Source of the DNA: Chiloscyllium plagiosum
Lineage: Eukaryota
Length of the DNA stretch: 64,000 bases
NCBI RefSeq assembly: GCF_004010195.1
Contig: NC_057753.1
Coordinates: forward strand, 1,576,023 to 1,640,022
Reading direction: 5' to 3'
Below the pieces are notes generated by a model. That model saw only the letters and a list, made by a program, of their open reading frames with translations, made no database searches and was not told where the DNA came from. A program made the position numbers and the translations under genes. Shown here one piece after another: positions 8,391 through 57,085 of this stretch. Numbering within the stretch: position 1 is the first letter of the stretch; every line of letters begins with the position of its first letter.

Positions 8391-11274
8391 ATGGTGGTCC
8401 AGAGATAGGCATATTAAATCCTTCATTCTGCCTCTCTCACCACTCAATTTTCTTTATTCCCTTCTTTGCAAGCGCTGACTGGTTCCCTCTCCGAAATCAC
8501 ATTAGTGAAATAGTTTGCTTTTTAATGACAATCCAGCGGCTTTTATAGTCATTTTGATCCTTATATTATCACACATTACCAGATTCATTACTACGATTTC
8601 ACAATTAGACTGCGTTTGAGTGGATTCTCTGACATTGATTGTTTTCTTCTGTAATAATTCAGATTCAGAGCAAACCAGGGGGGTGGGTTTGCTGTCAGGA
8701 AACTGGTCATAATCGCTGTGGCAGAATCACTGGCATACTCTTACTTTCTTGCAAGATAATGTTAGAATGAACTGAAGGAAGCAGTGCAGGACCAGCACGA
8801 CCTGCAACCTCAATGTTGTATTTGGCGATAATACAGATCATCGTCGTGACATTTTGTGTCACTAAGAACGTTTGGAATCCTCCTAATGACTGATTTTATA
8901 CAAATCCCAGATCACTGATCATCATATTCTTTAAACGTGAGATTATATGCAAGATTGAGATGGCGAGACCAGACAAGCTTTGTTTGCGTCACATTTGACG
9001 GCTTGAACAGCTCTTGACCTTTTAATTCCATGTTCTTTTACGAGCAAGAGCTGGTACATTTCCAGGGACTGCTGAGCAAATTTCAGACGGGAAAGCAGAA
9101 GAATTCAAGAGCACAGCCCAATCAAGATGACGTGTGAATGAATGAACAAGTAATGGATAGACAATAAAGTTGAACTCAATTGCATTTTACTGTGAATTAT
9201 GTGATTTGAATGCGATCACTGTAAAATAGTTTAAACACGAGCATCGGGGGAAAATTTTTATCACTTTCTTGAACTGTTCCCTGAATTTAATCTAGGTCCC
9301 TGCACAAATAAATGGATCTATCAGGAATTGAAAAGCACAAGCTTAGATCAGGTTTCCTCACAAATAAGATTTGATTTGTTATAATTTGAAACTGTGAAAT
9401 AAATGATATTTGCAATTTGATCACAGAGGAACATCAACAGAACAAATAGACTTGACTGGAGGAAACTGCCCGAGATGGACAATGGACTGCCTCCGTTTTT
9501 CCACCTGTGGATCACTCTAGTTCTCTCCATTTCTTGATAGTGAGGAGATTGAGCAGCAAAATCGGAATGAATGGAAAACAAGAGTTGAAAATTACTATTA
9601 TCCAGTCAAATGCTGCGCAATAGGGTAAAGTTCCATATACTGATTTGAGGTTGCAATACCAAGGTACATTGTAAGCTATAAAGGAAGGCTCACAGGCGAA
9701 GTACAAGGCGATGATTCTAATAGAACTCAGGCAATTGGTATAACAATAGTTGCTGCTTTCTCAGTATAACAGTCCATTTTCAGATTCTGGCAACAAATGG
9801 CAATGAATCGATCAAAGTTGAAGGTGACATTTACCCAGGCAGAAGAATCCCTGACTTCATCAATTAACACAAGGCTCAAACTACAGCCTTGGGCGATGGA
9901 CAGGAATGCCACTGGGAAATAAATACGCACAACCCGGTTCAACATCACAGCTGTGACAATGACGAGGACATCTGTCACCACCATGGATACCTTGTAATAC
10001 ATGATGCATTTGTAAAGACCGAACCTTTCCCTTGACAGAATAATAATCATTAAATGGTTGGGTATAAAAAAAGACACAAAAGAGTGAACATGTGATATTG
10101 CCAGAGGTATATGTAGTCATAGAAAGACAAAATAAAAACAGACATTTGGTAATTCTGAAGTTTCTGGAAGATATTGCAAATGGCGAAAGAATCCCCACTT
10201 TGCACTATATTTCTTTTCACATGCAGAGAAAACTCTCTAATTGGAATCGAACTCTTAGTATTGTATATTAGTGGCAGTAGGGAAATATTCTCAATTTTAC
10301 AGACAGCGTTGACAGTGTTTGTTTTTGATTCCCTTGCAGGAAACCCATTCTTTTCTGCCCTTGGGCAATTTTTTCAGAGGAACAGAAACAAAAGTAGCCT
10401 GAAACATAGAAATTTATGAAGGAATATTTTTTTTTATCGATCAAGGAAATGTTCATAAAGGCATAGTCGAGATTGAATGTAAAGACATCCTAAGAATTTC
10501 ACATTAAAGCAGACATCCAGGAAGAGATCACTTAAAGAGAAATGAAAATTCACCTCTAAACTGAAAGCGTTCTGCGATCTGATAATGATTTTAAGCTAAA
10601 GCGTTTTGTGACATGCATCAAAGCAATAGAACAGATGAAGCCCGGGTATAGCTCCATTGGCAATGCCCTCTCTTTTGAATGCAATGACTCTGGCTTCAAT
10701 TCCTACTGCAAGGTTTCAGAATTGACCGAGTATTGCACTGCATAGGGTGTTGTATTTGTGCCAAATAGAAGATGTGAGGACTAATAGTTGAATAATAAAT
10801 CTACCTGAACTATCAAGAAGCTGCTGTTAAAATTCTGTCACAAGCAATAAGTCGTACCACATGGCAAAACTGAAGAAGTTGTGCAAATCATAAAAAATTG
10901 TAGATTTGGAGCGTAACAATTAATTGACCATTCTGGTGATCAAAACGCAATCGAAGTACAATTAAATAGTAATCACAATGAGATGATTTACGTGCAGTAA
11001 TAGAAAAAATATAACAGAACAGTATTTTTTGATTTCTCCCGAAAACAATAAACCAGAAAAAGGGGAGAAAATGATATAATTCAAGAAAAAAAACGGTGTA
11101 ATAACAATGTAAACAAACCATGCAAATGAGAAAGTACAATGGCAGCGTTGAAGTGGAGAAAATAAGATATAAATTCATTGACAACCTTTTGTTGGCAAAA
11201 TGGAACATTAATATATTTAAAAGGATCGTGAGAATTTTAATCCAGCGAAGGTGCAGTTGTTGTACTTTGACTGG

Positions 11275-11450
11275 ACAAAAGGGATGCTCTCTCGTTAGAG
11301 AGAAACCTTTTTTGATAGTTTAACCTGACGGTAACTATGCTTCAGGTGCGGTGAAACTTGAAAAGGACAGCACTTCATGGTAATCTCAGCCAGTGCAATG
11401 ATTGAACCAAACAAAACCTGCCATTCAGCCAACTGAGCTAACTGACCCCT
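11275..11450 (-). mobile_element. Old tRNA-derived SINE in the GPCR intron, predating the duplications
   Basis: Minus strand reads GGGGTCAGTTAGCTCAGTTGGCTG (A-box) ... GGTTCAATC (B-box-like). Decayed copies occur in the other introns at ~27160-27325 and ~56660-56830. Confidence 0.55.
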
Positions 11451-11654
11451 TAAACTGACACTGTGTATCCCAAAGAGACAATCCCATTGTGTGACTGAAT
11501 CTAAAAAAGGCTATGGGCACATTGGGACTGCAGTATTGGCAACTGAGAGAAGGGATAAACTGAGATAAAAAATTAAACGTATTAAAATCTCTCATAATTA
11601 AAAGCTACTGAATATCCTTTACGTTGAACAACGACAGCTGCTAGGATTGGAAGG

Positions 11655-12356
11655 TGTTACGTCACGGGGTAAACACTCCTGCTGAATTTAAAACCAGCAA
11701 CACAGAAAAGACTTATTCTGTGCAGTAATCTGTAAAAATCCGAGTGGCCAACAACTACTTAAAGAAAAAAATCACAACTTTATTCCTTAAAGTATAACGG
11801 AGAATAATTAACTAACCACTATTTACAATTTCTTTGTCTAACATATCGTTTAGATTCCCTTCTATAATTTTAGTCCAATAAAACTCCCAATTAAAATTTA
11901 CAAATCAACACTTCTTATTTCAAAACCAGGCAGCTGTCGGTTCTTGTCTTTGGATCTTCCTGTGTCTTTCTTTCCTCTTGTTAGGAAGTTCTACGTTACA
12001 GGTTACTGATCGAAAAGGTACTTTTAAGAGAGATGTTTTTGCAAGCAGTCTTCATGCTAGGTTCGGCAGTTCTCCACTCAACTGTTCAATTCTCCACCGG
12101 TCTTATACCCTAGATCATCAGATTGTGTCATTGGGTTTTAACATTATCAATATACTCAATTCAATCCTGATTGGAGTTTGATTTGTTTCAGGTATAATTT
12201 AAATTGATTGGCCGAATTTGAATTTGTTTCTGTCTCCAAGCCACTCAGCGAGTGCGATTTGTTCTTCAACAAAATGTAATTTTGTACATTCTCCAGCACT
12301 CAGTGTACTTGCCAAGTCTTTCGCTCTTGTAAAGGTACACCAACATCTTCATAACA
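11655..12356 (-). mobile_element. Solo LTR (702 bp) of a Gypsy-type element inserted in GPCR exon 1
   Basis: TGTTA...TAACA termini. Its reverse complement starts TGTTATGAAG and ends GTGTTTACCCCGTGACGTAACA, resembling the LTR at 19628-20352. Confidence 0.85.
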
Positions 12357-12722
12357 ATAATATGTAGCAGGCATGACCCCGTTTGTTAATCTATGCACTT
12401 CAGTCTCAAACTGCGATTGGGTTTGGTACAACATTTGGATGGCGCTCACATTTGTACCTGATGGCAGGTTACAGGTACAGAATCCGATACTATGGGCTTT
12501 TCCAATTATTACGCTAACTGAAGTAATTAATTTAGAAATGCTTCTTCCAGGCTTTTCACCTTTGCACGGCGTAGAACTTTATTCCTGGGCACTGGCAGTG
12601 CTCCAAATTGAAGTACTTTCAGGGTGTGGTCTGCTTGTTTAAAAAAAAAGACACAGGCAGTTGCAAATGTGCATAGAGTTGTTTTGCATGAAGTATCCTT
12701 GCCTGTGACGAAATATCTCTGA

Positions 12723-15700
12723 TGATATGGACCAGACCAGACCACCTCAAATCACTTCAAGAAAATAGTCCGTACTAAGGTTTGCTAGTTGTCTTAAGCA
12801 GGTGCATGGTGGATATTCCAGGAGTGATATAACTGGCTCTACTACTTTGACTATGTCGTCTTCGAGCATGCATTCAGTTTCCTTTTGAACCTGTGCCAAC
12901 TTTAGAGTGTAATGCCTATCAGGATGTTGCTAAATCGGAATATCATCTCCTTCATGCACAATTAGGATAGTACTTGTCAGCTTACTACAACAAAGCTCCC
13001 CATGTGATGATAATAACTCTTATTTCGATTTTCCTCTGGAGGATAACTCAATAGCTCATCCCAAATTATTGACAACTTCTTCATTGTCCAAATTAAGCTG
13101 AGGAATGCCCAGTTCAGAATCCTCTGAACTTGGTTCTTTACTATGTGTTGTAATCAATAACATAGTCTCCTTTCGGCTTTTCTTCCCTGTCAAAATACGT
13201 TTTGAGCATATTGACATGGCACACTTTGAGAAGTTTCTTTCTGTCTGGAGTCCTTATCAAATGGTTCACCTCAGTCAATTTCCTTTCGACTCGATAAGAT
13301 CCACTAAACCTTACTTTTAAAGGTTCACCTATCACTTGAAATAACGCTATCAACTTACCTCCATTCGTGAAATTGCGGGGTTTGACTTCTTTTCTGCTCC
13401 CTGTTTCATTGTATGCCTTGATTCTTTGAAATTTGTTTAGCCAACTCCCCGAGTCTATTTAATTGTTGCCAAAGATTTGGCAAATAGTCCAAATATTTGG
13501 CCTCTGAATTACGACTTACCAATTTCTCCTTAATCAATTTTAGTGGTCCTCTCACTTCAAGGCCAAAATGTAAATGAAATGGATTGGATTCGGGTCGATT
13601 CATTTGGTGCATCTCTGATTGCAAAAAATGCAAACGAAATTCCTTTATCCCAATCCTCTGGATGGTCTTGACTATAAGACCTCAACATTATCTTCAATGT
13701 CCAATGCCACCTTTCTGGCTCTTCCAGTGACTCTGGATGGTACAGAGTAGAATTAAATTGTTTTATTCTTAAGGATTGCATAACTTCCTTAAATAATTTC
13801 GATGTGAAATTTGACTCCAGATCAAATTGTATCTTTGTGGGTGATTCGTAGCTGGTGAAATAGTTGAGAAACTCCTCAACACTCCTTTAAGCTGTGATAT
13901 TGCCTAATGTGATATAGTCTAATGAATACATCCATTGCTGTTCACAAATACTGATTCCCACTTTTTCTTTTTGGTAGGAGTCGTACACAATCATTTAAGA
14001 CTCTTGTGAAAGGTTCATCAAATGCAGGAATTGCTTTTAAACGTGTGGGTTTCATTATTACCTGTAGTTTTCCAATTACCGGACATCACTGACATGTCTG
14101 GCAAAATTCATGTGCATTCTTGTGATGCTCAGGCCAGGAGAAATGCTTTTATATTTTGGCTGAGGGTTTTCTTACCCCTAAATGATCCCCTACTTTTAGT
14201 ATATGCGCCACCTGCAACACCTCCTTTCAAAACCCACTGACAATACGACTTGATGAACTTCTGCTCATTGCTCATCTATCTGACTGTGTGATGGTCAGTA
14301 GTTCCTAATTCAGACATCATTTTTAAGGTAGTAGCGTTAAGGGATACATTCAGATTCTCATTCTGTGTATGCCCTTTGATGCAATCGCTTTAAATTTTCA
14401 TTTTCCTCCTGTAGCTGAGTTAATTTATGTGAGCTAAAGATATCTGTTTTGTCATCCATCTGCGCTTGGTGTGCGTCAAAAAATTTGATCAAACAGGGTC
14501 TATGCGAATTCCACTTCTTCTCTCTAATGCTTGATCTCTCTTCTTTCAATTGGTGACTTTGTGAACTCGTTACCAGACAATCCTGAAAATTCCCAGGATA
14601 TATGTCCTGCTATAGTTCAGTTCCCTGAATTTCTACTGGTTTTTCAACCACGGTAGACTGCACTCCCACCTGTTATTCAGTTATATCGTTAGCAAGGACA
14701 AATTGTATTTCTGGAACTGAGAGTTTGTCCACTACTACGACTTCTCCACTCTTCACTGGCCATTCTACCCTCACTCGACATAACTGAATGCTGCTTGTCT
14801 TATCGTGAATTCCCGTTACTTCTACCTTTTCTGTCAATAGTCTTTCAGAGGTATAAATCTTCTCATCTTTCAAAATCAAATATTGGGAGGATCCAGTCTC
14901 TCTTAGTATTGTAACCTCTTTACCTGCTGCGCCTGGTCTATGTGAGTAAACTTTACCTTCACTAGCAAATGGTTTACGAAGATCTGGCACTTCGTCCTTA
15001 ACCAACCTCCGAGGAGGTTGTCCATTCTGGTTCAGCTTTCCAGTCTCCACTGTGCTTTCTTTTTCCATCCCAGAAAAACTCACTGGTTTACCCTACTTTC
15101 TTGCATCTGAATTCCCAGTGCTTTTCCTAATCTACCAAGACTGTGATTTAATGTGGTCTACTTCACCGAGATCTACATTTGCATTTTTACGTGAAAATTT
15201 CTCTTTTGCCCAATTTCTGTCCCTCACAGATTGAAATTAATTTTGAAAGCCAAACTTTGATTTATGGACCAACGCATAATCGTCAACCATTTCACTTGCT
15301 AATCTTGCCGTTTTTACTCGCTGCTATTACAAATCAATTCTCACTAGTTTAGGAAGTGAAGATTTGAAGTCCTTCAAAATAATCGTCTCTCTAAGAGTGG
15401 CATAGGATTGCTCTAATTTAATGCCCTTATCCCCCTATCAAAATTACTTTGTCTAATACTTTCAAACTCAATGTAGGTTTGACCAGGGTCCCTCCTTAGG
15501 TTCATGAAACGTTATCAGGGCTTCTGGTCCAAGCTCATATTCACTTAATATATCCTTCTTCACCTCCTCAGACACCATAGATACCTCCTCTGATATGGAT
15601 GCGAATACCTCATTTGCTGTACCTCCTGGTTCTGTTTGGATCACTAGAACCTACATGGTCACTGCCCACCGCATTTGTTTAGTCACCTTTTCAAATGTGA

Positions 15701-16003
15701 TGAAAAAGGCTTCCACATCCGTCTCATCAAATTTAGGCAATGCTTGAATATATTTCTTACTAGGCCTTTGGGTACCTTGGGTTTCCCCATACTCTGTGTC
15801 TTCCTCACAAAGCTTACCTTCAGCCTTTTAAGCTGTCTTTACTGCCTAAATGCTGTAATTATCTCTCATTTTCTCACAGAAGAAGGCAACCTCAACTCCA
15901 AATTGTCCACTAATTCTGGCAGATTGACATTATTCACCTTTTGCAAAGCTCTCGCATTTACTTCTTCCACCTCCAGAAAACTCTTGGTGACCAAAAGAGC
16001 CAT
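12723..16003 (-). mobile_element. Degenerate Gmr1-like Gypsy LTR retrotransposon (gag-PR-INT-start of RT)
   Basis: Gag ATG at ~16003 with a SCAN-like capsid segment (~15750-15350). Protease VTILRETGSSQ (~14900); integrase core (~14020-13550; YHPESL..ERWHWTLK.ML..Y....PEDWD); GEPLKVRFSGSY (~13300); RT N-terminus QVQKETECMLEDDIV (~12890). Many stops and frameshifts. A short LTR-terminus remnant lies at 12723. Confidence 0.85.
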
Positions 16004-16020
16004 TGATAACCCAAGCATAG

Positions 16021-16697
16021 TAAGGTCTGAGCGAGTGTTCTGAACAAAGAGACCTTGAAGTGCAGGTTCGTAGCTCCTTGAAAATAGAGTCGCAGGTAGA
16101 TAGGATAGTGAAGAAGGCGTTTGGTATGCATTCCTTTAGTGGTCCGAGTATTGAGTATAGGAGTTGGGAAGTCATGTTGCAACTGTATGGCACTATGTTT
16201 AGGTCACTTTTAGAATATGGTGTGCAGCTGTGGTCTCCTTCCTATCGGAAGGATGTTGTGAAACTTGAAAGGGTTCTGAAAAGATTTACAAGGATCTTGC
16301 CAGTGTTTGAGGATTTGAACTATAGCGACAGGTTGAATAGGCTGGGGCTGTTTTCACTGCAGCGTCAGAGGTTGATAGGATAAATAGAGAAGGTCTTTTC
16401 ACTGGGGTGTGGGAGTCCAGAACTAGAAAGCATAGGTTTAGGGTGAGAGAGGAAAAGTATAAAGGAGATACGCACCCAGTGTGTAGTGCGTGTATGGATG
16501 AACTGCCAGAGCACGTGGTGGAGGTTGGGACAATTAAAACATTGAAAAGGCATCTGGATGGGTATATGAATCGGAAAGTTTAGGAGGGATATGGCCAAGT
16601 GGGAATAGGTTAGGTTGAGATATTTGGTCAGCATGGACAAGTTGGACTGAAGATTCCGTTTCCGTGCTGTACATCTCTGTGATTCTATGACTCTATA
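16021..16697 (+). mobile_element. CR1/HER1 LINE 3' end
   Basis: ORF 16060-16383 (LEYGVQLWSPSYRKDVVKLERVLKRFTR) and a TCTATGAC tail. Confidence 0.9.
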
Positions 16698-17544: not shown

Positions 17545-17680
17545 AGCTTTGACAAAGGGTCAGTTAGACTCGAAACGTCAGCTCTTTTCTCTCCTTACAG
17601 GTGCTTCCAGACCTGCTGAGATTTTCCAGCATTTTCTCTTTTGGTTTCAGATTCCAGCATCCGCAGTAATTTGCTTTTAT
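17545..17680 (+). mobile_element. Short Penelope-type repeat with a type I hammerhead-like motif (17545-17583)
   Basis: AGCT-TTGACAA-A-GGGTC-AGTTA-GACTC-GAAA-CG-TC-AGCT followed by ...CAGATTCCAGCATCCGCAG. It is absent from the paralogous positions (~29320, ~59220). Confidence 0.6.
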
Positions 17681-20352: not shown

Positions 20353-20355
20353 GTT

Positions 20356-20375: not shown

Positions 20376-22830
20376 TTGGACAGGTCTAAACAGATCCAAT
20401 CTGACATTTGGACAGATTTGATTAGATTTGAGATACAAAAGATCACAACAGATTTAAACACTTGCTGATTAGTGTCCTAGATCTTTAAATAACACATAGG
20501 TGAGTCAATTTGTTTAATTTCTGTTAGTTGTGGTTGGTTAAAAGCAAGTGAGAGAAATGGTTCTTAAGATTGCTAAAGAGGTTCTGGGGTTTGAAGATAA
20601 TTCCCAAATTTGCCGAGAAAGTTTAGAAGGACAGCAAAAGACCATATTTTTAGCAAAGAGGCTAGAATTGGGTTTAACCAAGGAGAAAAGGAAAGCTGAA
20701 ATTGTCAGAGAAACAAGTACAGTAGAGTTAGAAAAACTTAAATTACAATTGAGGAAAATGGCGTTAGAGAATAAACAAAGGGAGAAAGAAAGAGAAACAC
20801 AGAGAGAAGAAAGAGATATGAAGGATAATGAAGAGAAAGAGGGAAAGAGGTAGAGGGAGGAAAAAAGAAAGAGAAGGTTCTTAGCTGAGCAAAGAGAGAG
20901 AGAGAGAGAATAAAGTGTAAGAGAAAGAAAGGGACAGAGAAGAAAGGGAGAGTGAAAAGAGAGAAAGGAACGAGAAAAGGAGAGAAAATTTGAACTTCAG
21001 AAGTTGCAACTTAGTCAGGAAAGTCAAGTTAACAGGATGAAGATGAAGAGCGAAGGTAGTGATTTCTGTAAGTATGTTAAAACACTGCCACATTTTGATG
21101 AGAAAGAAGTCAAAGCTTTCTTTATTTCATGTGAAGAAAAGGCTAGGCAGATGGAGTTGTCAGAGGACTTATGGGTAATGCTAGTTCACACCAAACTGGT
21201 TGGCAGAGCTCATGAGGTATTTGCAGTGCTGTCAGCTGAGGGGTCAAGAGATTATGCAGATGTTAAACAGGGTATTTTGAATGCTAATGAATTGGTACCA
21301 GAAACATAAAGACAGCAGTTCAGAAGCAAAAATAAGGAACCGGGTCATACTTATGTTGAGTTCTAAAGAAATAAACTTAGTAATTTTGGCTGATAGGTGC
21401 CAGCCTTAAAAATAAATAAAACATATGAGGGTCTAAGAGAGATTATTTGCCGGCAGAGTTTACAAATTCATTTCCAGAGATGATGAGAATTCATGTAGAC
21501 AAACAGAAAGTTCAAGAAGTGAAAAGAACAGCGAAGATGGCAGTTGAATATGTATTGGTTGCATAAGGCAAAGTTTAGTTTCTGGCAAGAATTTCATCTT
21601 GTTAAGGATGGAAATTGGGAGAAGGGGAGGTTCTACACTACAAAACAAGGAGTAGAGGACACTGGTAATTGTTTACCACGTTAAAAAAGAAGCCCACAAG
21701 GGTGGAAAGGAGATGAAAGGCATCAGGTCGTTAAAAAAAGGCACTATGGGAAAAGATGTAGTAAAGCAAGCTGAGCCAGTGACATTAGTGGAAGTAGGAA
21801 AGGAAACCCCAAGAAAAGTCAAAGAACTGCAGCAGAGTGCACAACCTAGGCAGGGGTTGGGTATGAATTTAATGCCTGATATCTATAATGGTTTCACCTC
21901 TGTGGGTAAAGTTTACTCAGGAAGAACGGGGAAGAAGGGAAAGAGGTTATAAATTTGAGAGATACAGGTTCTAACCTGCCTCGAATAGTAAGAGATGAAC
22001 TTATTTGCACTCTTTCTGACCTGCCACTCGAGAGATTGGTAATCTGTGGGAGAGATGGGATAGTGGGATAGAAACTTAGAGTTCCCCTTTGGAGTGTTAA
22101 CTTAAAACTGGGAAGGACACAGTGGGAGTGATTGACATAGTGTCAGTTCCAGGAATGCAGTTTGATTTTGGGAACGATTTAGTAGGATCCGCAGTGAGAG
22201 TGGCACCCCTCGTTGTGGAGAAGCCCAAAGACGACCTGGGAACGGAGGAGTTAAAAGAAAATTACTCGGAATTCTCACAGACTGTGTAGTAACAAGATTC
22301 CACTATCATAAGCCACTGCACGAAGCAAAAACTAAAGAGAAGGACGATGGAGTTGAGGTCCAATTAGTGGACACCATGTTCGATGTAATGGTGCAGGAAA
22401 AAATCTGAACAGGCAGAGGGTTAGGCAGAAGTACTTCGTTCGAAAAAACTAATGGGCTGACAAAAGGAAGACGAGACAATAAAAGATATATATGTTGATG
22501 CATACACAGAAGATGAAGCAGAGAATATTCCTGAGGGTTATTATCTTAAAGGTAGAATCCTAAGACTCAAATGGAGACCATGGCAGGTTAGTGCAGAGGA
22601 GAAATGGGTAGAACTGCACCCGATTGTTTTGCCAATAGCAATCAGACGGGAAATGTTACGGGTAGCACATGAGCCACCAACAGGAGTTTACTTAGGTGTA
22701 GAGAAGACTTAGGGGAAGGTACAAAAGCAATTGTATTGGCCTGGAATACACAAGGGTGTGCTCAACTTCTGCTATACATTTCATGTGCCAATTGGTAGGT
22801 AAGCTACAGGCAGTAATAAAACCATCACCT

Positions 22831-25027: not shown

Positions 25028-25926
25028 TCACTTTGATAGCAGTATCAGGGGAAACTTTACCAATTTCTTTACCTGCTCTCTAAATTTACTCTGGGTCCCT
25101 GCATAAATAAATGGATTGATGCAGGAACTCAAAAGCTGAAGCATAAAACCGCCTTCCTCAAGAATAAAATTTGATTCGTTGTAATTTGAACCTGAGAAAT
25201 AACTGACATTTGCAATTTGAACACAGAGGAATGTCAGGAGAACTAATAAATACGACAGGAGGAAACTGCCCGAGATGGCGAAGAGTAAAACTATGGATTT
25301 TCTCCGTTTTTCCATTTCTGGGTCACTCTTGTTCTCTCCATTCTTCCTGGTCAGGATTCTCCTGCGGGCTCTACTGGCCAATACAATGTCCCTGACAGTG
25401 AGGGCATTGAGCAGCAAAATCAGAATGAATGGAAGACAAGGGTTTAAAATTACTATTATCCAGTCGAATGCAATCCAAAAGGGTGAGGTATAGTATATTG
25501 ATTTGAGACTGCAATACCAAGGTACATTGTTAATGATAAAGGAAGACTCATAAATAAAGTACAAGGGTATGTTTCTGAGAAGGCTTAGAATGCCGGCCAT
25601 TGATATAACCACAGCTGCTACTTTCTCCGTGCAATATTTCATTTTTAGCTTCTGGCAGCAAATGGCAATGAATCGATCCAAGGTGAAAGCGACAGTTACC
25701 CAAACAGAAGAATCCCTGACTCCATAAAGTAACATAAGATTGGTGCTACAGACTGGAGTGATTGACAGGAACGTCATTGTGAAATAAATACCCACAATCC
25801 GGTTTAATATCACAGCTGTGATAATGACCAGGGCATCCGTTATCGCCATTGATACCAGGTAATATGCAATACATTTCGAAAGACCACACCTTTCCCGTGT
25901 CAAGATAACAATCACTGAAAGGTTAG
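25028..25926 (-). CDS. GPR139-like orphan class A GPCR copy A, exon 2 (of 2); 322 aa spliced protein
   Basis: Open 7TM frame with TM3 DRF, TM3 (PVC) and ECL2 (WYC) cysteines and TM7 NPFIY. Acceptor TTTCATAG| at 25927-25928; TGA at 25028. Confidence 0.93.
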
Positions 25927-27497: not shown

Positions 27498-27567
27498 CTG
27501 GAATCCCAATAGTTGCTATGATTGGATAGTAAATAGCAAATACGAGCCCTTTTGGTACTCCATGCAT
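27498..27567 (-). CDS. GPR139-like GPCR copy A, exon 1 (70 nt, MHGVPKGLVFAIYYPIIATIGIP+G)
   Basis: ATG at 27567 and donor G|GTGAAG at 27496-27497. The phase-1 join gives GIP-A-NL; 70+899=969 nt, in frame. The same exon is found before copy B. Confidence 0.9.
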
Positions 27568-27618: not shown

Positions 27619-27688
27619 TTTATACCTGATGCCAGTCACCAGGGACACCACTGGATGTCTCGGGCTTTTGCAATTATTGCTCTAATTG
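27619..27688 (-). promoter_or_regulatory. Putative core promoter of copy A (TATAAA; O/E-like; two TAATTG)
   Basis: TATAAA (minus) at 27619-27624, 52 nt upstream of the ATG, with identical spacing in copy B. TCACCAGGGA at 27636-27645, CAATTA at 27671 and TAATTG at 27683. Confidence 0.5.
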
Positions 27689-30039: not shown

Positions 30040-30622
30040 NNNNNNNNNNNNNNNNNNNNNNNNNNNNNNNNNNNNNNNNNNNNNNNNNNNNNNNNNNNNN
30101 NNNNNNNNNNNNNNNNNNNNNNNNNNNNNNNNNNNNNNNNNNNNNNNNNNNNNNNNNNNNNNNNNNNNNNNNNNNNNNNNNNNNNNNNNNNNNNNNNNNN
30201 NNNNNNNNNNNNNNNNNNNNNNNNNNNNNNNNNNNNNNNNNNNNNNNNNNNNNNNNNNNNNNNNNNNNNNNNNNNNNNNNNNNNNNNNNNNNNNNNNNNN
30301 NNNNNNNNNNNNNNNNNNNNNNNNNNNNNNNNNNNNNNNNNNNNNNNNNNNNNNNNNNNNNNNNNNNNNNNNNNNNNNNNNNNNNNNNNNNNNNNNNNNN
30401 NNNNNNNNNNNNNNNNNNNNNNNNNNNNNNNNNNNNNNNNNNNNNNNNNNNNNNNNNNNNNNNNNNNNNNNNNNNNNNNNNNNNNNNNNNNNNNNNNNNN
30501 NNNNNNNNNNNNNNNNNNNNNNNNNNNNNNNNNNNNNNNNNNNNNNNNNNNNNNNNNNNNNNNNNNNNNNNNNNNNNNNNNNNNNNNNNNNNNNNNNNNN
30601 NNNNNNNNNNNNNNNNNNNNNN
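30040..30622. other. Assembly gap (583 N)
   Basis: Run of n characters. Confidence 1.
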
Positions 30623-32686: not shown

Positions 32687-32698
32687 GAAGAGTGTTGC

Positions 32699-42977: not shown

Positions 42978-43046
42978 ATGGTGCAACCAAGGTAAGTTTC
43001 TGGTTAACAAGGGAGTTAACAATTGTTGTGTAGGCTTGAATGGATA

Positions 43047-43620: not shown

Positions 43621-45369
43621 TGAACAGCACATTCCAGATCTGTATTCTAATGTTTATATTCATGGTAATATTGGAGCTAGTCACTCGGGTGTGAGCAGAT
43701 AAATTAGACGTTGAAATGAAACATTACACTTTGGACTGAAGTCAGTGAGGTCTTCGATGTGTGCTTGAGAAAACGTTACCAAATTGCTCCTTGTAAGCAA
43801 CTCAGTGCCAGGAAGAGAGCCAGAGAATATGCGAGAAAAGTGATTGAGTTCAAGTTAGTTCAGGGGTGGGAGAAAGAAGTCTTGCAGGTATAGAGAAACT
43901 GGAGGTGGGATTTGAAGATGTGTTAATATTGGTTTAAGCTGAAAACCCCAAATAAATCCGCCCTGGACCTATGTTTCTTGTCCAGGATTATTTCTTCCTG
44001 GCATTCCTCAAGCTCCTAATGCTGCTGTTAATTTTTCGTTGACAGTTAATGAAGATTTAATATTATTTGCTAGGAACTCAGATGAAAATGACTGAAGTGA
44101 TTAAATTGAAATTACAATTAAATTCCAACAGATAAAGAACTTGATAATTAATGACATTTCTGAAAACACGAATGCCTGATCACAAATGGAAATCCATAAG
44201 TGAATTAAGAATGAATATCAGTCAGTCTGTTGGGATTGCAAAACTAAAAAAAAGCATGGATATTTAAAAATTGAAATACTTGCAGTAAATGCTGGAGACG
44301 CTCAATGTCATCGATGGAATTAGCTGAGAAAGAAATTGGTTGACGATTCAGGGCTGTGAGCATGTGAAAGGGGGTAGGTGGTGGGTGTGGGCTAGAGGTG
44401 TGAAGGTGAGCAAAAGGGAAAGTCTGAGGTAGGGTGGATTGTCGGAGAAATCAAGTGACGGAAGGTTTCACGTTGTGAAACCAATGGGAGCAGTAAAGGC
44501 ACAAAAGGTGTGTCTGCATGAGGTGTGAATAGACACTTCAATGTGAAGAAAATCACAGAAAAACGAGAACAGAAAACAAAGTCAGAGAAAAGCACTAGAT
44601 AAAATGAGACAGAAATCAAATCACACAATTCTTGAGCTTAGAAATCTCAAGGCTGAAAAGTGCCTCTCGTTACTCCCTATTTCAGATGAAAGTCACACAC
44701 CCACCAACTTTATTTATTCCCTCTGCAAGACGATAGCTTGGCTCAGAAAGAGACTTCTTCCCACTCGCCTCCCTGGCGAGACAGATTGACTTTGGACTGT
44801 TCCAACTCTGTGCAGCGCTGGGTGAAGAGTCTGGAAGCTGTTAGCTGTTAGTCTGTATGTTTCTACAAATTCATTACTGGATGACAGTCAAATCAGAGTG
44901 TCATGTGACTTGGAACTTTTGTCATTCGCATACACCTGCTATGCTTGTCCTTCTACATGGTAGGGGTGCAGGGTGTTGGGGGTGTGAATTTCGGGATTCT
45001 GTCCAACTCTGGTCCAGGTATAGACCATTCTTGCCTCTCCCAACTCACCATCTCATCCCATTGTTTGCAAGTGCTGACTGGTTCCCTCCTTGAAATACAT
45101 TCTTGAATTAGTTTCTTACGTAATGACAATCCAGCAGCTTGTCCTCTCGTGGCTTCCCCAAACACAACCAGATTCATTCCCCTCGATTTAGCAGCTAGCT
45201 TGTATTTTAATGGGTTCTCTATCACTGATTTTGTTTCCTTCTACAAGATGTCAGGTTCACAGAAAATTCGAGAGGGTGGACTTTCAGTCTGGAAATTCGT
45301 TGCAAACGTTGTGTCACAGCAGAATCACTTGTAGGTTCTCTCTTTATTGGAGTAAAATGTTGTAATGTA

Positions 45370-45900
45370 AGGGAATCAGCAAAAATAATGCCACTGTTCA
45401 AGAAAAGCGGTAGAGTAAAGGCAAGTTAATGCAGGCCTGTTAGCCTAATTGATGGGAAGGACCCTGTGAAACTTAGAAGTGTTCAGAAAGGTTTGCAAAA
45501 ATCTTGCCAGGGTTGGAGGATTTGAGCTTCAAAGAGAGGCTGAATAGGTTGGGGCTGTACTTAAAAGGCATCTGCATGAGAACATGAATAAAAAAATGTT
45601 CAGACGGATTATAGGCCAAATCCTCACAAGTGGGACAAGAGTAATTTGCGATATCTTGTTGGCATTAACGTGTGTTTTCATGCTGTCCATCTCTACTGAG
45701 ATATCTGGATAGAAGTTGTTCCATTGGGCAGATGCAGCATTGGTTCATGAAAGTTGGGCCATGTTTAACTAATATAATGGAATTCTTTCAGGATATTACA
45801 AGCGCGATGGACAACGGGGAACCGGTGGTTGTGGTGTAAATGGATGTCGAGAAGGCATTCAACAAAGTACTGAAGAAAAGGCTGATTCGTAATATAAAGA
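45370..45900 (+). mobile_element. Patchwork of CR1 fragments replacing the GPCR gene in this unit
   Basis: PLFKKSGRVKAS..RPVSL-like RT piece, then a 3'-end piece (45465-45700), then a further RT piece (FFQDITSAMDNGEPV). Confidence 0.7.
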
Positions 45901-46721
45901 TTTGTAAAGCGAAAACAACTAGTTGTGAATATTTACATTCAGTGTTGAAAGTTCCCATTGAGTCCAGAGCACAACTGCATTCAGTGCACACAGTTTCAAT
46001 TCTGTGCCATAACTTTCATCATAAATGGCATCGATCGAGAACACATATCTTCATTTTGCCAGGTCCATCTCCAGGTCAGCAGCATAACCTTAGGCTGTTG
46101 TCTAAGACTGTAACACGTTGAAGAGCAGGTGAGGCAGAAAGTGGTAAAGTGGCAAGGGTTGCATTTTCTGCATTTGCAAAATGTCCTCGAGTAGGAAGCT
46201 GTTGGTTTAGGTGAGTGCATGAAATGTACTGGAAAAGATCTGAGGACAGAGCTTGGGAAGTACTGAAATAAATGACATTCCAAAATGTAGGGGTGACCTG
46301 TGCCTTCTTATAACAAAATTATCCATGTTTACTGACAGAAAATGACCGACAAACAAAGAAAGGCAGCCTGCCCGAGCATTGAAACACAAGATGGAACTCT
46401 TAGGAGCAAAAAAAAGTGATAGCTGCCAAAGAGGTAGATAGGAGTTTGAAAATTCTCGAAGAAAAAGAAAAACAATGAATAGAAGCAGCAGACACAGTCG
46501 GGAGAATAACAGAAAAGAACTTGGGAAATGGACGTTGGAATTCAGACCTGTTCATTCTGCAGATTGCCTGTTTTTTAAAAAAGAAACAAGACAAGCTGCA
46601 ATGTTGTAAAGTATGTGCGTGTGTGTGTGAGAGAGAGACAGAGCGAGAGGAAAACCGACTGTATGCTTGTTCCCTGAACCTTGAGGAAGGGTTAACTCTT
46701 TGTGGTCTTATGTGACTGGAG

Positions 46722-49490: not shown

Positions 49491-49744
49491 CTTGCATGGT
49501 CAGGAAAGACGGCAACACAGCCATAAGTTAAAAAGTGCAGGGAATTTGGAAAAAATGTGGAAACTGAATGTAGAACAGAAGAGGTACATTTTGCTCTTAT
49601 TTTTAAAGCTCATAGTTTGTAAGATCTTTCCAACAAAATAAATTGAAACCCAGGATCAGGGTTACAACACAAAAGAGTAACATCAAAACCAATTCATAAT
49701 TTCATTGGTTGGTGACAACTCCTAATTTGATTATCTCTTATCAT

Positions 49745-50015
49745 CCTGTAGAATCCATAGAATCACTACAGTGTGAACAGGCCCTTCAGCCCAAAAAGCC
49801 CACACCGATACTCCACAGAATTACCCACCCAAACCTATTGTCCTGCACCATTGATGTACATTTATCTCTGACCTTTGCACCTCACCTACACATCCCTGAA
49901 CATTACGAGCCAATTCACTAATCTGGATTGTGGGTGGAAACTTCAGAACCCAGAGGAAGCCCTCTCAAACATGGGGACAATATGGAAACTCCACACAGAC
50001 AGTCGCCTGAGGCTG
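49745..50015 (-). mobile_element. HE1-like SINE, degenerate
   Basis: CAGGCCCTTCAGCCC...AAACTCCACACAGACAGTCGCCTGAGG. Confidence 0.75.
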
Positions 50016-51049
50016 GAAGTTACTTTCAGATTGAATATAAGTAAGGGAAATAGTTGCATGGGGATACGAAATTGCTAAACATCGAGGTAAGAACAGTATA
50101 CTTAAATGGAGTGATGACAGGCAGACGGATATGGGATAACTGCATAATGTGGGAACTGATGAAGTCCATTTTTGTTCATAGTGTCAATCTGTAGTAAGCC
50201 AAAACCGAACGAATGTAACTCAGAGACAAAATAGAAATTACTGCAAATATTCAGCAGATCTGAAAGCAACTGTGGAGAGAAATCAGGGATTTTATTCCAG
50301 ATTGAGCTACCCATCTCAGAACTGATAGCTTTGAATAATCTCCACAGTACTGCGAAAGCTGCTCAGCTGCAGCAGCAAATATTTGAGGTACTCCCACTCA
50401 TATCTGATGAGCTCCACTCTGAACCCTGAACACTGCAACGTATCAGGGACGTGGAGAGTTACCTGGACATCGAATTTTATGAGGTGGTCATACCCTCTAG
50501 ATTAACCACGTTGAATTCGATTAGGGACAGGAGGGTATGACTATGAGCGTGGTCGGTAGAGGGATCCAGGAAGCAGTGTGCTGAAGGAAAGAAAAGCCAC
50601 GTATTTCTAACGTAATTTTAATTCTGATAAATTGTGATACGTTCCACACTTTTAACAACTCTTCAATTAAAAAAGCAAGTGCTATCAATCTGAAAAAAAT
50701 AAATGCCAGACTATTAAGCAAGCTTCTGTGGGGGGAGAATTATAGTTTACATTGTGTGACATCTTTCTGTACACAGAGTTATGTCTCATCCAGAAACATT
50801 AGCAATCATACTTGCCAATGTGGATGCTGAAAATATGATTGACAGAAGACGAGAACCCGGAGATACTGCTTAAATATAAGGGGGCTCCCATTTAATAGGG
50901 TGATGAAGGACATAAAGCGGATGCATGTTCATTGAATAGTTGTTCATGGTACAGCTAAATAATTTCCTGGTGAGCAGGGGAGTGAACAATTGTTGGAATA
51001 GGCATGAATGTGGTGTTGATGTTCTCCTCAGATCAGTCGTGACCTCAGC

Positions 51050-51690
51050 GTCATTGAGTTGTACAGCACGGGAAACAGAACCTCAGTCTAACTCGTCCAT
51101 GCCGATCAGATATCCTAAATTAACCTACTCCCATTTTCCAACATTTTGCCCATATCCCTCTAAATCATTCTCATTTAGGTATCCATACAAATGCCTTTTA
51201 AATATTGTAACTCTACCAGCCTCCATGACTTTGTCTTGCAGTTCATTTCGCACATGCATCACTCTCTGTGAAATAAGTGCCCGTTAGGTCCCTTACATAT
51301 CTTGCCCTCTACCTACGCCTTTAGTTTTGGACTCCCCTACCCTGGTCAAAAACTACCTTGGCTATTTATCCTATCTATGACCTTCATGATTGTATAAACC
51401 ACTATAAGGTCACCTCTGAGACTCCGACGCTCCGGGGAAATAACTCCAGCCTGTTCACCCTCTCCCTTTAACTCAAACCCTCCAGCCTTGGCAACATTCA
51501 TGTAAATCATTTCTACAAGCTACGGGGAGAATGCGGATAAGTGGAGTTGAAATGCCCATCAGCCATGATTGAATGGCGGAGTGGACTCGATGGGCCGAAT
51601 GGCCTTACTTCCGCTCCTATGTCTTATGGTCTTAAGTTTAATAACGTTTTACCTAGTGAAAAGAGGTTCCAACACACTGCTCCAAAAGTG
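51050..51690 (-). mobile_element. CR1/HER1 LINE 3' end with a nested short + strand CR1 tail (~51518-51633)
   Basis: Reverse CR1 body, with inserted ...GATGGGCCGAATGGCCTTACTTCCGCTCCTATGTCTTATGGTCTT. Confidence 0.75.
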
Positions 51691-54397
51691 GCATGCTCAA
51701 TTGTGTTGAATGGCTGAGCGGGCTCACAGAACTGATTGGCATATTCGAGTTCCTTTTCATGTGTCTGTATGCATGGTCATAAATATCTTATCCACTTGGG
51801 TGCAAGCATAAAAAGTAGACCTTGAAATAGAGTGTTAAGCTTTTCATTGAATTCAATAAGGACCTTTAGTTTTGCTTGCTAAAAAAAAACCTAAATCAAT
51901 CCTTGTAATGGACTTAGCTACAACAAGAGGGCCAGAGGATAAGCAGGAGAAGCGATGAGTTCAGCTTATGCCAGAAAGGGAGAGAAATAAAGAATTAAAC
52001 CTTGGGAGATCTGGAGAAGTTGGAGATGTGTGGGGAGGATGTGGTAACAGTGGACTATACTGCAAACCGCCTTTAAATTCTCCCTGGACCTCTGTTTTAG
52101 CTGGAAGCTATTTTTCCTTGCGATCTCTCCAGAATTACAGCTGCCATCTTTGCTCCATAAGAATGAAAGCGCATGACCAACCTTCTCCGTGACTGGTCTA
52201 TTTCTTGGTGTCCACATCATAATTTGCAAAAAGCATCTGGAAATGTTGGCATGATGCCTTGGTTATCGATGTCAAAGTCGTTAGTGTACACAGTGTGGAT
52301 CAGGAATGAATCATGAACTCTTATGGAATTCCAGTAGTAACCTTCCTCTTGTTCAAAAGATAGTTTTTATTGACGTCTACTTCATGACAATCAGACAATT
52401 TCATGCCAATGTTGTCACTGTCAACTTTATTTCATTACCTGCAGTGATTTTCTTATCAGACTTTTATGGAACAATTTATTAAATCACTGTCACTATGTTC
52501 ATCTCATCAATTACATTACCCTCATAAAAGTTCTGTTACCTGAATAAGAAATGACAGTCGAAGTCCTGGGAGATGATTTTCACTCAACAAATCTCTACAA
52601 GCTTTCCTGAATTAATAACCATTTATCCGAATGACGTTAACTGTGTAGCAAATTGCTACTACCGAGTGTAAATGATGTGGCCTCCAACGGGCTGTTAACC
52701 TTTCATTGATGGTGGATGAAGGTTTAATATTATTTGCCTGAAACACTTCACTTGTGCTCTAGTGAAGTGATTAATTTGCAATTACAATTAAATGATAAAG
52801 TATTCGATAAATGATCAAATTTCACAGGACATAAACTATCAATGACAAATGGAGATCTATAAATGAATTACTAATATAGATCAGTCAGTTCTGTAGGTAC
52901 TGTAGGACCGAAAATCACCGTAAAGTTTTAAATTTGGAATATGAGCAGGGAATACTGGAGACATTCAATATCTTCGATAGTTCATTGCAAACAGACATTG
53001 GTTCACATTTCAGTTCTATGAGCAAGTGGAGAGGAGCGGAGGTGGGAAGATGAACAAGAGAAAGTTCTGGAATCAATGAGAACAGTCAAGATGTGTGAAC
53101 AGGTGAATAGAAGCCTTGAATGTAAAGGAAATAGAAGAGCGAGAATGGAAAAGAAAGTCAGGGAGAAACACCAATTAAAATGGGATAGAAATCCAATCAT
53201 AGAGCTCTGGCACTTTCACACCTGAATATTGATTTCAATTCCTGTTCAGGTCACATGCAAAGTCACAGACCTGCTCAGTTTTATTATTCTCGCTGCAGTC
53301 TACACGTCAGATCAGGAGGTTACTTGCCCCCAACTCCATCTCTCTCTGAGTCCACAGAAACTGCAGAATTGTTACAATTCTGGGGCGCACTGGGTAAAAA
53401 CATAGCAAACTGCCAGCTGGTAGCTTGTAGGTTTCTACTCATTCAGTCCTGGATGATAGACAAATCAGCGTGACATGTGACTTAGAAACGTTGACATTCC
53501 CATATACCTGTAATGCTTGTCCTTCAACATGGTGGGGGTGAACATTTGGGGAATCTCGTCGATTCTGCTCCAGTAATGGATAGATTGAATCCTTCATCTC
53601 TGCTTCTCTTGCCTCTCCATATCCTTCTACAGCTTGCAAATGCTGACCAATTCCCTTCCATGAAGGACATCAGTGCAATAGTTTGGTTTACAATGAAAGT
53701 CCAGTAGCTTTCATGGTCATTTTGTTCCTCGCAGTATCAACTGCACACATTACCAGAGTCGCGACCTCGATTTCAAAACTAATCTGTGTTTTAATGGATT
53801 TCCATCTCATTTTTATTTTCTTCTGCGAGAGATCAGGTCCACAGGGAATTAGAAGGAGTTGATTTGCAATGAGGAACCTCAATGGAAACATTGTGCCACA
53901 GCAGGATCACTGGCATACTCTCTCTTCCTTGCAGGAAAATGTTGGAATGAACTTAAAGGAACAGCGCTGAACCAGTGTGGCCTGCAAACTAAGAGTGTAT
54001 TGAAGGATAGTAGAAACCAGTTTCATGACATTCAGCGTTACTGAGAATTTTGGGAATCGCCACAATGTCCTGTGTATACAATTCTCAGATCCTAGATCAT
54101 CATCATATTTTGATGTGAGATCTTATGAAATATTGAGATGGTGAGAACAGTCTCATCTTCGTTTTCACCACATTATTCCTTTTGAATCAGTTCTTGCCCT
54201 TTTAATTCAATGTGCTTGTACGAACAAGAACTGCTGTATATCTCCCAAGACTGCCGATTGCAAGACAGAGATAAAGCAAAATAACTCAACAGCACAGACG
54301 AATCAGGATGACATATAAATGAACATAAATGCAGAGTATGGACTCTAATATTGGTGTGAAATTGCATTTTGCTATTATTTATGTGAATTTTACATGA

Positions 54398-55308
54398 TCA
54401 CGACTTAAATAATTTAAAGAACAATATCAGTGGAAATGTAATCAATTTCTTTAACTGCTCTCTGAACTTCCTCTGGGTCCCTGCATAAATAAAAGGGTTG
54501 ACGCAGGAACTCAAAAGCTGAAGCATATACCCGCCTTCATTAAGAATAAAGTTTGATTGACTGTAATTTGAACCTGAGAAATAACTGGCATTCGCAATTT
54601 GAACATAGAGGAATGTCAGGAGAGCCAACAAATACGACAGAAGGAAGCTGCCCGAGATGGCGAAAAGTAAAACAATGGACCTCCTCCGTTTTTCCAACTC
54701 TGGGTCACTCTGATTCTCTCCATTGCCCCTGGTTCGGAGTCTCCTGCGAGCTCTACTGGTCAATACAATGTGCTTGACAGTGAGGGTATTGAGCAGTACA
54801 ATCAGAATGAATGGAAGACAAGGGTTTAAAATTACTGTTATCCAATCGAATGCAACCCAATAGAGTGAGGTATAATATATTGCTTTGAGGCTGCAATACC
54901 AAGGTACATTGTTAGTGATAAAGGAAGGTTCATACGCGAAGTACAAGGGAATGTGTCTGATACAGCTCAGAGTGCAGGCTGCTGATATGACCACAGTCGC
55001 TACTTTCTCGGTGCAGTATTTCATTTTCAGCTTCTGGCAACAAATAGCAATGAATCGATCAAAGGTGAAAGTGACAGTTACCCAGACTGAACAATCTCGG
55101 AAGCCATTAATTAACATAAGTTTGGCACTACAGATTGGGGTGATAGACAAGAATGCCATTGGGAAATAAATAGGTATAATTCGATTTAATACCACAGCTG
55201 TGATAATGACTAAGGCATCCGTTACAGCCATCGATACCAGGTAATGCACGACACATTTGGAAAGTCCACACCTTTCCCATGACAGGACACCAATCACCAA
55301 AAGGTTAG
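54398..55308 (-). CDS. GPR139-like orphan class A GPCR copy B, exon 2 (of 2); 326 aa spliced protein
   Basis: Open 7TM frame (DRF, WYC, NPFIY), roughly 80% identical to copy A by eye. Acceptor TTTTCAAAG| at 55309-55310; TGA at 54398. Confidence 0.93.
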
Positions 55309-56462
55309 CTTTGAAAAAGAAATATGTTGCAGTGAATACATGATATCGACAAATGTAGATGTACCAAAGGAAATACAAAACAGAAATCTGGACATGCTGA
55401 ACTTTCTGGAAGCAATTGCAAAGAGAGAAAAGAGTCCCAACTGTGCACTAAAAATGTTTTATTCAACAGCAGAAAATATCTCTAACTGGTTGCCGACTCT
55501 CATTATTGTGGCATGTGACAATATTCGCTGTTTTTCATTCAACACTGATGTTCTTCATTTATGATATAGTTGCACGAAATGTATTTAATTCTGCTCTTGA
55601 GCGATTGTAATAAGGGAACAGCAGCAAAGCTAGACTGAAATATTGGCAAATGGAAGAAGCAGTAGTATTATATCGACCAATGAAGCATACATGATAAAAT
55701 GTAAAGAAATCCTGAGAGGTTCATATTAAATCAGATATCCAGGAAGAGGTCGCTGAAACAGAAAAGAAACCTTATCTCTGAATTGAAAGAGATCTGAAAT
55801 TACATCGCATAACGATATTAAGCTAAGGCAGCAACGTTTTGTGACAGAAAATAAAGCAACATGATAGGTATATCTCATTTGCCAACGTCCTCTCTATTGA
55901 GTCCAATGATTTAGCCTTAAAATCCTACTGCAAGACTTCAATATTGATTGAGTATTGCATTACACAGGGTGTTTCATTTGTGTAAAACGAACAAATGGAA
56001 GATGTGGGAAACAATAGTAGAATATAAAATCTAACAGAACTATCAATAAGCGGCTGTTTATGTTCCATCAGAAGCAAAAAGTGGTATACCATGGAAATGT
56101 TGATTTCCCTCAGTAGCTGTGCAGATAGAAAGAAAAAGATACATTTGCAGTGTGATAATTAATTGACAGTTAATCTGCTCAATACAATCGACATGCAATC
56201 AAATAAAAATCCCAGTTAAATAATTCATCTGCACTATTGGCGTTAGAAACACAACAGAACAACATTTCCCACTTCTGAAGCTAACAATACACCAGACGAA
56301 AGGAGGAAAATGGTACTACTCAATGAAAAGAAAACAGCGTATTAAAAATGTAAGCAAGCAATGCAATTGAAAAGGAGAATTGACAATTTTAAAGTGGGGA
56401 AGGTAAGATACAAATAAATTGAAATCATATTGTTCATAAATTTAACGTTAATGCCTTAAAAG

Positions 56463-56607
56463 AATTGGAAGCAGTAGCTTTCGGAGCGCCGTTCTCTCAT
56501 CAGGTGATGAAGGAGCGGCGCTCCAAAAGTGACCACTTCCAATTAAACCTGTTGGACTATAACCTGGCGTTGTGTGATTGCCAGTCCAACACCGGCATCT
56601 CCAAATC
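56463..56607 (+). mobile_element. Short Penelope-type hairpin element in the copy B intron, with 12-bp TSD
   Basis: ATGCCTTAAAAG at 56451-56462 and 56608-56619; internal inverted repeat AATTGGAAG...GGAGCGCCG / CGGCGCTCC...CTTCCAATT. Confidence 0.8.
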
Positions 56608-57015
56608 ATGCCTTAAAAGTAATGTGAGACGTTCTAGCCCAAGTAAGGTAAAGATGCCGTGTTCTTACTGGACCAGAGAGCTGCTCTCTGATTAGACAGA
56701 AAGGACCAGAAGACCACTACACCTCAGGCTCGGTGAGAGGTTGAGAAGGAGAGTCGTTCGTGGTAACCTCAGATAGTGCTGGAATTGAACCAAAAAATTG
56801 CTATCCATCCAACTGAGTAAATGATTCCTTCAAAAATACGCACCCCAAGTCGGAAATCCTATTGAAAATGACCAAATTGCCGAACTGAATGTCAAAAAAC
56901 CTATGAATTTATTGGAGTACAGTACTGATCGCCTCGACAACAGATAAACTCAGATGAGAAAATTAATGAAGTTGCTAAAAATTATTCCTATTTAGTACTG
57001 ATGAAAATTCTTTAC

Positions 57016-57085
57016 CTGGAATGCCTATAGTTGCTAGGATTGGATAGTAAATAGCAAACACGAGCCCTTTTGGTGTTCCATGCAT
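57016..57085 (-). CDS. GPR139-like GPCR copy B, exon 1 (70 nt, MHGTPKGLVFAIYYPILATIGIP+G)
   Basis: ATG at 57085 and donor G|GTAAAG at 57014-57015; 70+911=981 nt, in frame. Confidence 0.9.

Follow-up and report, generated by a model that had tools for sequence, protein, structure and literature searches.

Background

The G-protein-coupled receptors (GPCRs) GPR139 and GPR142 have been described as the deuterostome sister group of the protostome receptors for W/Y/F-amide peptides (PMC8557429, PMC7270403), and Rinne et al. (2019; PMC6504862) placed beside them three further gene sets, the orphans GPR210A/B, which occur in coelacanth, gar and fishes. Activation of GPR139 by Trp or Phe requires the residues F109, H187, W241 and N271 (PMC5430874). 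Here we analyse a stretch of 64,000 nucleotides from the genome of Chiloscyllium plagiosum (NC_057753.1, positions 1,576,023 to 1,640,022 of the forward strand; "the window"), which contains two intact genes (A and B) for GPR139-like receptors, and describe the very large family of cartilaginous-fish receptors to which they belong.

Only 20-62 complete olfactory receptor (OR) genes occur in cartilaginous fishes (PMC10869828), and the combination of large olfactory organs with few ORs in sharks has been explained as discrimination traded for sensitivity (PMC10116579, PMC10869828). As far as their available text goes, the published surveys of shark chemoreceptors covered only the four known families (PMC10116579, PMC10869828). 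The family described here is unmentioned in the available parts of PMC10869828, PMC10116579, PMC7677710 and PMC10620051, sharks are not mentioned in PMC12208981, and no description of the expansion was found in the literature covered, from which subscription journals were absent.

A receptor family of more than a thousand copies

The genome of C. plagiosum contains more than a thousand copies of the family. A protein search of the genome gave 8,202 candidates, of which 129 were scored, the lowest-scoring still being 55-57% identical. Exact matches to degenerate patterns numbered 1,032 for the third transmembrane helix (TM3), 1,085 for TM7/helix 8 and 1,155 for the end of exon 1, with 0 matches to the reversed version of each pattern. 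Since the TM7 pattern was found in 24 of 40 loci chosen by the TM3 pattern, the family total is about 1,800 copies. The main exon was intact in 18 of these 40 loci, broken in 18 and cut by assembly gaps in four; the sample was drawn from the first 100 listed TM3 matches (contigs C2-C8) and leans to one subfamily. As a rough estimate, the genome contains 500-900 intact main exons, and complete intact genes may be fewer. The same search tool applied to the same genome found 118 class C candidates and three strong OR (PF13853) matches, no locus of the family being among the latter; the assembly thus does not inflate families generally, and both counts are in line with the small published shark repertoires.

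At least 25 large contigs carry copies of the family, which are densest on C8 and C37-C49 and also occur on many unplaced contigs. A co-oriented array comprising 20 copies (19 scored plus the pseudogene of the window) spans about 580 kb of contig C44 (1.52-2.10 Mb) and includes the window; 15 of the 19 scored copies have an intact main exon. The duplication unit measures 10-30 kb and is arranged in tandem, and losses occurred by stops, frameshifts, insertion and deletion. Another subfamily, here called the C8 type, is dispersed, mainly on C8 and often on unplaced contigs. Exon 1 was located at most 27 kb from exon 2 in just one of six C8-type loci, and at most 9 kb from the main exon in 72 of 82 loci of the other subfamilies. 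Within C8:0.3-15 Mb there are 79 matches to the exon-1 motif versus about 20 main-exon matches, a roughly fourfold excess, and the exon-1 matches lie tens of kb away from the main-exon ones. Candidate causes are introns of great length, a fragmented assembly, first exons without a partner or, possibly, the presence of several alternative first exons for each main exon.

A preliminary description of the window, made from its sequence alone, had recognized four co-oriented units (two intact receptors, one pseudogene and one gene-less unit) and proposed a lineage-expanded family with birth and death. All four units are present, all on the minus strand, and the proposal is borne out on a scale far above what was envisaged: the paralogues number more than 1,000, not one to three, and half of the scorable sampled main exons are broken.

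Phylogenetic position

Among 1,229 homologues of gene A, the 120 best come exclusively from elasmobranchs and are mostly labelled "probable G-protein coupled receptor 139" in RefSeq. Genes of the family are thus already in the public annotation under wrong names, with hundreds of RefSeq models mislabelled as GPR139. The preliminary description was right in holding that the window genes are not the GPR139 orthologue and yet are akin to GPR139/142. The true GPR139 is one separate locus (L031 on C21), 94% identical to a shark record and 85% to a human one, and its identity to the window genes is 21%. The kinship is indicated by tree positions and by a common phase-1 intron in TM1, which in the window genes lies just ahead of the TM1 Asn and in L031 occupies the same position. 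A class C-type match lies 130 kb from L031 and would fit GPRC5B, the neighbour of GPR139 in mammals.

In a tree of 65 proteins, all 34 elasmobranch rows group together (support 91/79) as the sister of salamander proteins (100/100), both being placed within a vertebrate clade (100/98) that includes proteins of coelacanth and teleosts; GPR139 and GPR142 constitute a separate clade (100/100), which contains L031. The root depends on long-branch outgroups, with amphioxus and the family joined at 98/84 and 84, and the trees include no named protostome receptor. A second tree (quick version) has a Callorhinchus protein nested in the expansion. Three intact, single-copy, GPR210-like loci of C. plagiosum, L114 (C98156), L115 (C27:2.29 Mb) and L116 (C26:36.6 Mb), group in this tree with teleost and coelacanth genes that are also mislabelled GPR139, and together with the expanded lineage they may represent a four-member set derived from the vertebrate genome duplications. 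Of 226 matches, the best 120 include about one row for each amphibian or teleost species, the rows being 90% clusters that would hide recent duplicates.

According to these trees, the family expanded in chondrichthyans, the expansion being common to sharks, rays and a chimaera; it has a single amphibian gene as its sister and is placed in the sister lineage of GPR139/142. This lineage is probably "GPR210", which it fits by description, the Ensembl identifiers being unmapped. Because the Callorhinchus protein lies inside the expansion and the amphibian and teleost relatives number about one per species, the expansion is likely to have begun before the split of sharks and chimaeras, from one paralogue of a small family fitting the "GPR210" orphans.

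Receptor features and the ligand pocket

The proteins encoded by gene A (326 amino acids) and gene B (322 amino acids) are identical at 257 of 326 aligned positions (79%). Both score above the cut-off for Pfam 7tm_1 (PF00001) and, with a seven-helix fold and DRY-like and NPxxY motifs, belong to class A (rhodopsin-like). No membership was indicated by the OR, TAAR, V1R, V2R and T2R profiles, Pfam giving only 7tm_1 and a sub-threshold Srx match. The AlphaFold model of a whale-shark protein (P0002, 79% identical) predicts a confident seven-helix receptor (pLDDT, the predicted local distance difference test, 86.9), and its top Foldseek matches are all class A GPCRs. The fold search was rejected as a pointer to GPR139, which is only at rank 6 among near-equal class A matches.

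The DRF and NPxxY motifs are retained in the family, and a cysteine pair linking TM3 and the second extracellular loop is nearly invariant in it and absent from the aligned GPR139 and GPR142 rows. In the alignment, the positions of F109, H187, W241 and N271 are occupied by N, T, Y and Y in gene A and by Y, I, Y and F in gene B. None of the four Trp/Phe residues being kept, the amino-acid sensing proposed earlier has no support from the pocket, and sensing by the GPR139 mechanism is not supported. Exon 1 of the C8 type (L268-L282; C8, C7) encodes a longer N-terminus, in which short tandem repeats containing Trp vary in number and precede an aromatic segment that is hypervariable.

Selection

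Selection was tested with our own implementation of the M2a and M1a models. In the C8 type (34 sequences, i.e. 37 minus three duplicate fetches), M2a is preferred over M1a with a 2dlnL (twice the log-likelihood difference) of 570, and all 18 selected sites are extracellular, with omega about 7.5; the intracellular codons alone give a non-significant 2dlnL of 4.3 (p 0.12). The signal persists in 10 motif-picked sequences not chosen by similarity, and without gapped columns. A tree-free ratio of nonsynonymous to synonymous change (dN/dS) for the three loops is 1.38 (0.97-1.91), or 1.93 (1.33-2.69) with gene-wide dS. This young subfamily is under strong diversifying selection on its extracellular loops and has a conserved G-protein face. 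Recombination as a source of the signal was not detected by a simple incompatibility test (p 0.97), which is a weak one, and haplotype duplicates were dismissed, the sole pairs above 99% identity among the 37 sequences being the three loci fetched twice. In the array of the window (15 intact members), dN/dS is 0.29 and equal inside and outside; the comparison of M2a with M1a is marginal (2dlnL 9.2), with no site over 0.9. The intracellular codons have a dN/dS of 0.28 in both subfamilies.

Putative promoters

About 50-80 bases before the ATG, members of the window's clade carry TAATT(A/G), followed after two bases by a TCCCTGGAG-like site and, about 12 bases further on, by a TATA box. These elements match the published patterns for the homeodomain site (TAATKR) and the O/E site (YYYCARRRR; PMC5638857). 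With one to four bases allowed between them, the pair was present in 8/18 local and 6/18 other clade promoters of a first set (controls 0-1 per window, shuffles 0.1) and in 8/19 local and 9/29 non-local ones of an enlarged set (controls 0-2 per window, shuffles 0.2). In the 29 non-local promoters, O/E alone was found in 14 (shuffled 3.9) and the homeodomain site in 23 (shuffled 11.1). The motifs appear to have been selectively kept, because farther-upstream flanks are alignable in just 3 of 406 non-local pairs. A strict clade-consensus pattern has 14 matches genome-wide, all 14 directly upstream of an exon 1 of the family; by this result the motif is not a repeat, and nothing follows on function. 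In gene A the O/E-like site is TCCCTGGTG (57155-57163), with one mismatch to the published pattern. The pair was not seen in two single-copy sister genes.

The arrangement in the window's clade, a homeodomain and an O/E candidate site before a TATA box, resembles odorant-receptor regulatory DNA. Homeodomain and O/E patterns mark OR enhancers and promoters (PMC5638857), Lhx2 and Ebf sites are adjacent in OR regulatory DNA, with two bases between them in a gel-shift probe (PMC5608512), and O/E-like sites have been reported from all 39 V1R promoters examined (PMC3247230).

In other subfamilies, O/E alone occurs in 7/23 promoters (shuffled 2.9). Just upstream of the O/E site, 8 of these 23 have TGATG(C/T)AA or TGTTG(C/T)AA (C/EBP-ATF-like, CARE-like); the carriers include L165, L176, L178, L179, L214 and L231, with the motif 160-40 bases before the ATG. 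The CARE-like and EBF-palindrome patterns were chosen after viewing the data and are leads only. ATF5 and C/EBP control V2R genes. A V2R/OlfC cluster of C. plagiosum (C13:63.7-65.9 Mb) has about 35 intact seven-transmembrane exons, and in its promoters a TATA box lies about 50 bases ahead of the ATG, with a common O/E-like element 100-150 bases upstream. The O/E pattern was present within 200 bp in 5/7 V2R promoters.

Possible biological role

The chemosensory role suggested in the preliminary description gains strength from the promoter motifs and from selection and is still unproven. On present sequence evidence, we lean slightly towards the view that the family is a chemoreceptor repertoire of olfactory-type sensory neurons, expanded in cartilaginous fishes. 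As in an olfactory repertoire, the family is large and clustered and undergoes birth and death, and candidate proximal homeodomain and O/E sites occur in the window's clade, the tight pair being absent from the other subfamilies. Diversification of presumed ligand-facing residues is strong in the C8 type and weak in the window's array. Tandem and segmental duplication enlarges the repertoire, and pseudogenization reduces it. Lhx2-type and EBF factors would drive the compact promoters in nasal sensory neurons, with few family members expressed per neuron and a separate water-borne ligand for each receptor. As ligands, free Trp or Phe would be less likely than peptides or further large molecules bound at the outer loops, and signalling would proceed through a G protein, in keeping with the retained DRF and NPxxY motifs. 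It is conceivable, and we propose it tentatively, that cartilaginous fishes smell mainly with an unrecognized sister family of GPR139/142, comprising hundreds of receptors under Lhx2/EBF control.

Several points weigh against an olfactory role. The array of the window is under uniform purifying selection, with no diversifying signal, and genes A and B themselves carry only a degenerate motif pair. The tight pair is found in 0/23 promoters of other subfamilies and was not seen in 15 C8-type exon-1 regions, which have a different layout; the promoter and selection signals therefore stem from different subfamilies. The V2R promoters of C. plagiosum, expected to be olfactory, have the pair in 0/7 cases, and the centre of the inverted shark site is one base closer than in the single mouse probe compared. 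EBF also acts in B cells and in neurons generally, and immune receptors are no less typically selected on their outer loops than chemoreceptors are. The tight pair is, in mouse, a mark of enhancers and not of OR promoters (PMC5608512), and catshark olfactory neurons are reported to be all microvillous and Go- and TRPC2-positive, with ORs not expressed there (PMC10116579).

An unlikely alternative, which nevertheless deserves attention, is that these are immune recognition receptors on leukocytes, resembling formyl-peptide or chemoattractant receptors and diversified against pathogen or parasite molecules. The extreme outer-loop selection in the C8 type (omega about 7.5) and its hypervariable, repeat-bearing N-terminus would suit such a role, and so would the EBF sites, which fit B-lineage expression, and the crowding of copies on the small chromosomes C37-C49 and on C8. 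Enrichment of immune genes on fast-evolving shark chromosomes has been described (PMC7677710), these chromosomes not being mapped to the present assembly. However, the homeodomain site adjacent to O/E in the window's clade, a signature of olfactory neurons, would be left unexplained, and the window's array lacks diversifying selection. A nurse shark spleen supplement has no GPR139 entry, and with 4,750 characters only it provides no real test.

Since the promoter and selection signals come from different subfamilies, a family of mixed function is plausible, although we consider it improbable as the overall explanation: some clades would be chemosensory outside the nose (barbels, taste buds, chemosensory cells of skin or gill, gut) and others would serve neuronal identity or reproduction. 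Promoter types indeed differ (the pair in the window's clade, the post hoc CARE-like plus O/E pattern in 8/23 others and a third layout in the C8 type), as do the selection regimes of the subfamilies, but the recurrence of O/E-like sites before the TATA box across subfamilies suggests a common cell class. An amplification that was largely non-adaptive, driven by segmental duplication or by mobile elements and leaving most copies functionless, would fit the broken half of the sampled main exons and the dispersed C8 type, often on unplaced contigs and with exon 1 located no more than 27 kb from exon 2 in just 1/6, but is very improbable given the intracellular dN/dS of 0.28 in both subfamilies, promoter motifs kept where flanks are not, and an expansion common to sharks, rays and a chimaera. 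Mobile-element capture was considered and rejected, no sharp element-like boundary being seen around the copies.

Expression data count neither for nor against any of these readings. Four runs were compared at 80% likeness. Run X1 covers the intron of gene A and is DNA. Run X5 (single-cell RNA, 2 in 100 read) has about 11 paralogue-like reads over TM3, in a ratio to the intronic short interspersed element (SINE) similar to that in DNA (about 40 vs 34), and is compatible with genomic background. Run X6 gave no match and X7 short paralogue contigs of uncertain nature, and no exon 1-exon 2 joint was among the joints listed from the four runs. In a catshark atlas (PMC11979771), no GPCR is reported among the 50 top genes of a library that combined brain and olfactory tissue, which does not discriminate.

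New in this analysis are the sister position of the amphibian gene, the map of selected sites and the motifs in the candidate promoters. With several hundred intact GPCRs whose putative promoters are of olfactory type, existing RNA data allow a direct test of the paradox of shark smell, and XP_031757816.1, the single-copy sister gene in Xenopus, is a tractable entry point. If olfactory, the family would add a new one to the olfactory receptor families of vertebrates, exceed the repertoire known from sharks tenfold and overturn the view of sharks as having the smallest chemoreceptor set among jawed vertebrates; if immune instead, it would be among the largest vertebrate GPCR expansions and a new arm of shark immunity.

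Organization of the window

The features of the window are listed in table 1. The predicted splicing of the window genes relies on the GT..AG ends of the introns and on RefSeq homologues of full length and equal layout, and the exon 1 layout of gene A recurs in 48 clade members.

Table 1. Positions of receptor-related features in the window.
Feature	Position	Strand	Remarks
Gene A putative promoter	57137..57206	-	homeodomain TAATTA 57201-57206 and 57192-57197; TATAAA 57137-57142
Gene A exon 1	57016..57085	-	ATG, 23 codons, first half of TM1, phase-1 donor
Gene A intron	55309..57015	-	GT..AG, predicted; SINE-like repeat near 56450-56600
Gene A exon 2	54398..55308	-	TM1b-TM7, helix 8, stop
Unit 3	43682..46282	-	both repeat-unit flanks retained; gene and promoter deleted
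Gene B putative promoter	27619..27688	-	homeodomain 27683-27688 and 27671-27676; O/E-like 27637-27645; TATAAA 27619-27624
Gene B exon 1	27498..27567	-	
Gene B exon 2	25028..25926	-	
Pseudogene exon 1	11623..12398	-	two pieces, 12398-12357 and 11654-11623; start codon is GTG
Pseudogene exon 2	9226..10062	-	acceptor lost, five deletions, four in-register stops

Exon 2 of the pseudogene is identical to gene B at 659 of 833 aligned bases; its acceptor AG is gone, the deletions measure 7, 32, 15, 11 and 1 nt, and there is an insertion of 2 nt. Its exon 1 is interrupted by a repeat of 700 bp (about 11655-12356) with TG...CA-like ends, present in six other loci examined and possibly a solo long terminal repeat (LTR). 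Unit 3 parallels the downstream flank of gene A to 53949 and picks up again at the upstream flank (58491), the gene segment of 4.5 kb being missing. A tblastn search of 28500-54000 found no receptor sequence at E<=1, and the assembly gap at 30040-30622, between fragments of long interspersed elements, cannot conceal a whole gene because its 583 N are too short. Decayed fragments of Gypsy-type LTR retrotransposons lie at 13144-15092 (-) and 20542-21949 (+), one open reading frame piece matching Pfam Integrase_p58_C.

Comparison with known receptor families

Nematode Srw receptors have a chemosensory role, and the Atlas look-alikes of the family include clusters with Srw Pfam matches. Together with the protostome W/Y/F-amide receptors (MIP/sex-peptide, FMRFamide, proctolin and myosuppressin; PMC8557429), they would belong to the same superfamily as the family described here; the present expansion differs in being independent and in having taken place in vertebrates. 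The coelacanth and teleost genes that fit the description of GPR210A/B (PMC6504862) are its nearest relatives in the trees, and the C. plagiosum genome has three single-copy members of that group. However, the true sister of the expansion is the amphibian gene, and the available text of PMC6504862 deals with no chondrichthyan (0 mentions) and reports no expansion.

With GPR139/142 the family has in common the phase-1 intron before the TM1 Asn, the position as a sister lineage in both trees and the RefSeq name borne by most members. It differs in an identity of only about 21%, in the absence of the Trp/Phe-binding residues and in its more than 1,000 copies versus the one GPR139 found. The family differs from the odorant, TAAR, V1R, V2R and FPR families in sequence membership (7tm_1 only) and in its separate ancestry, and it resembles them in being a huge, clustered repertoire subject to birth and death, with compact genes and candidate homeodomain and O/E promoter sites.

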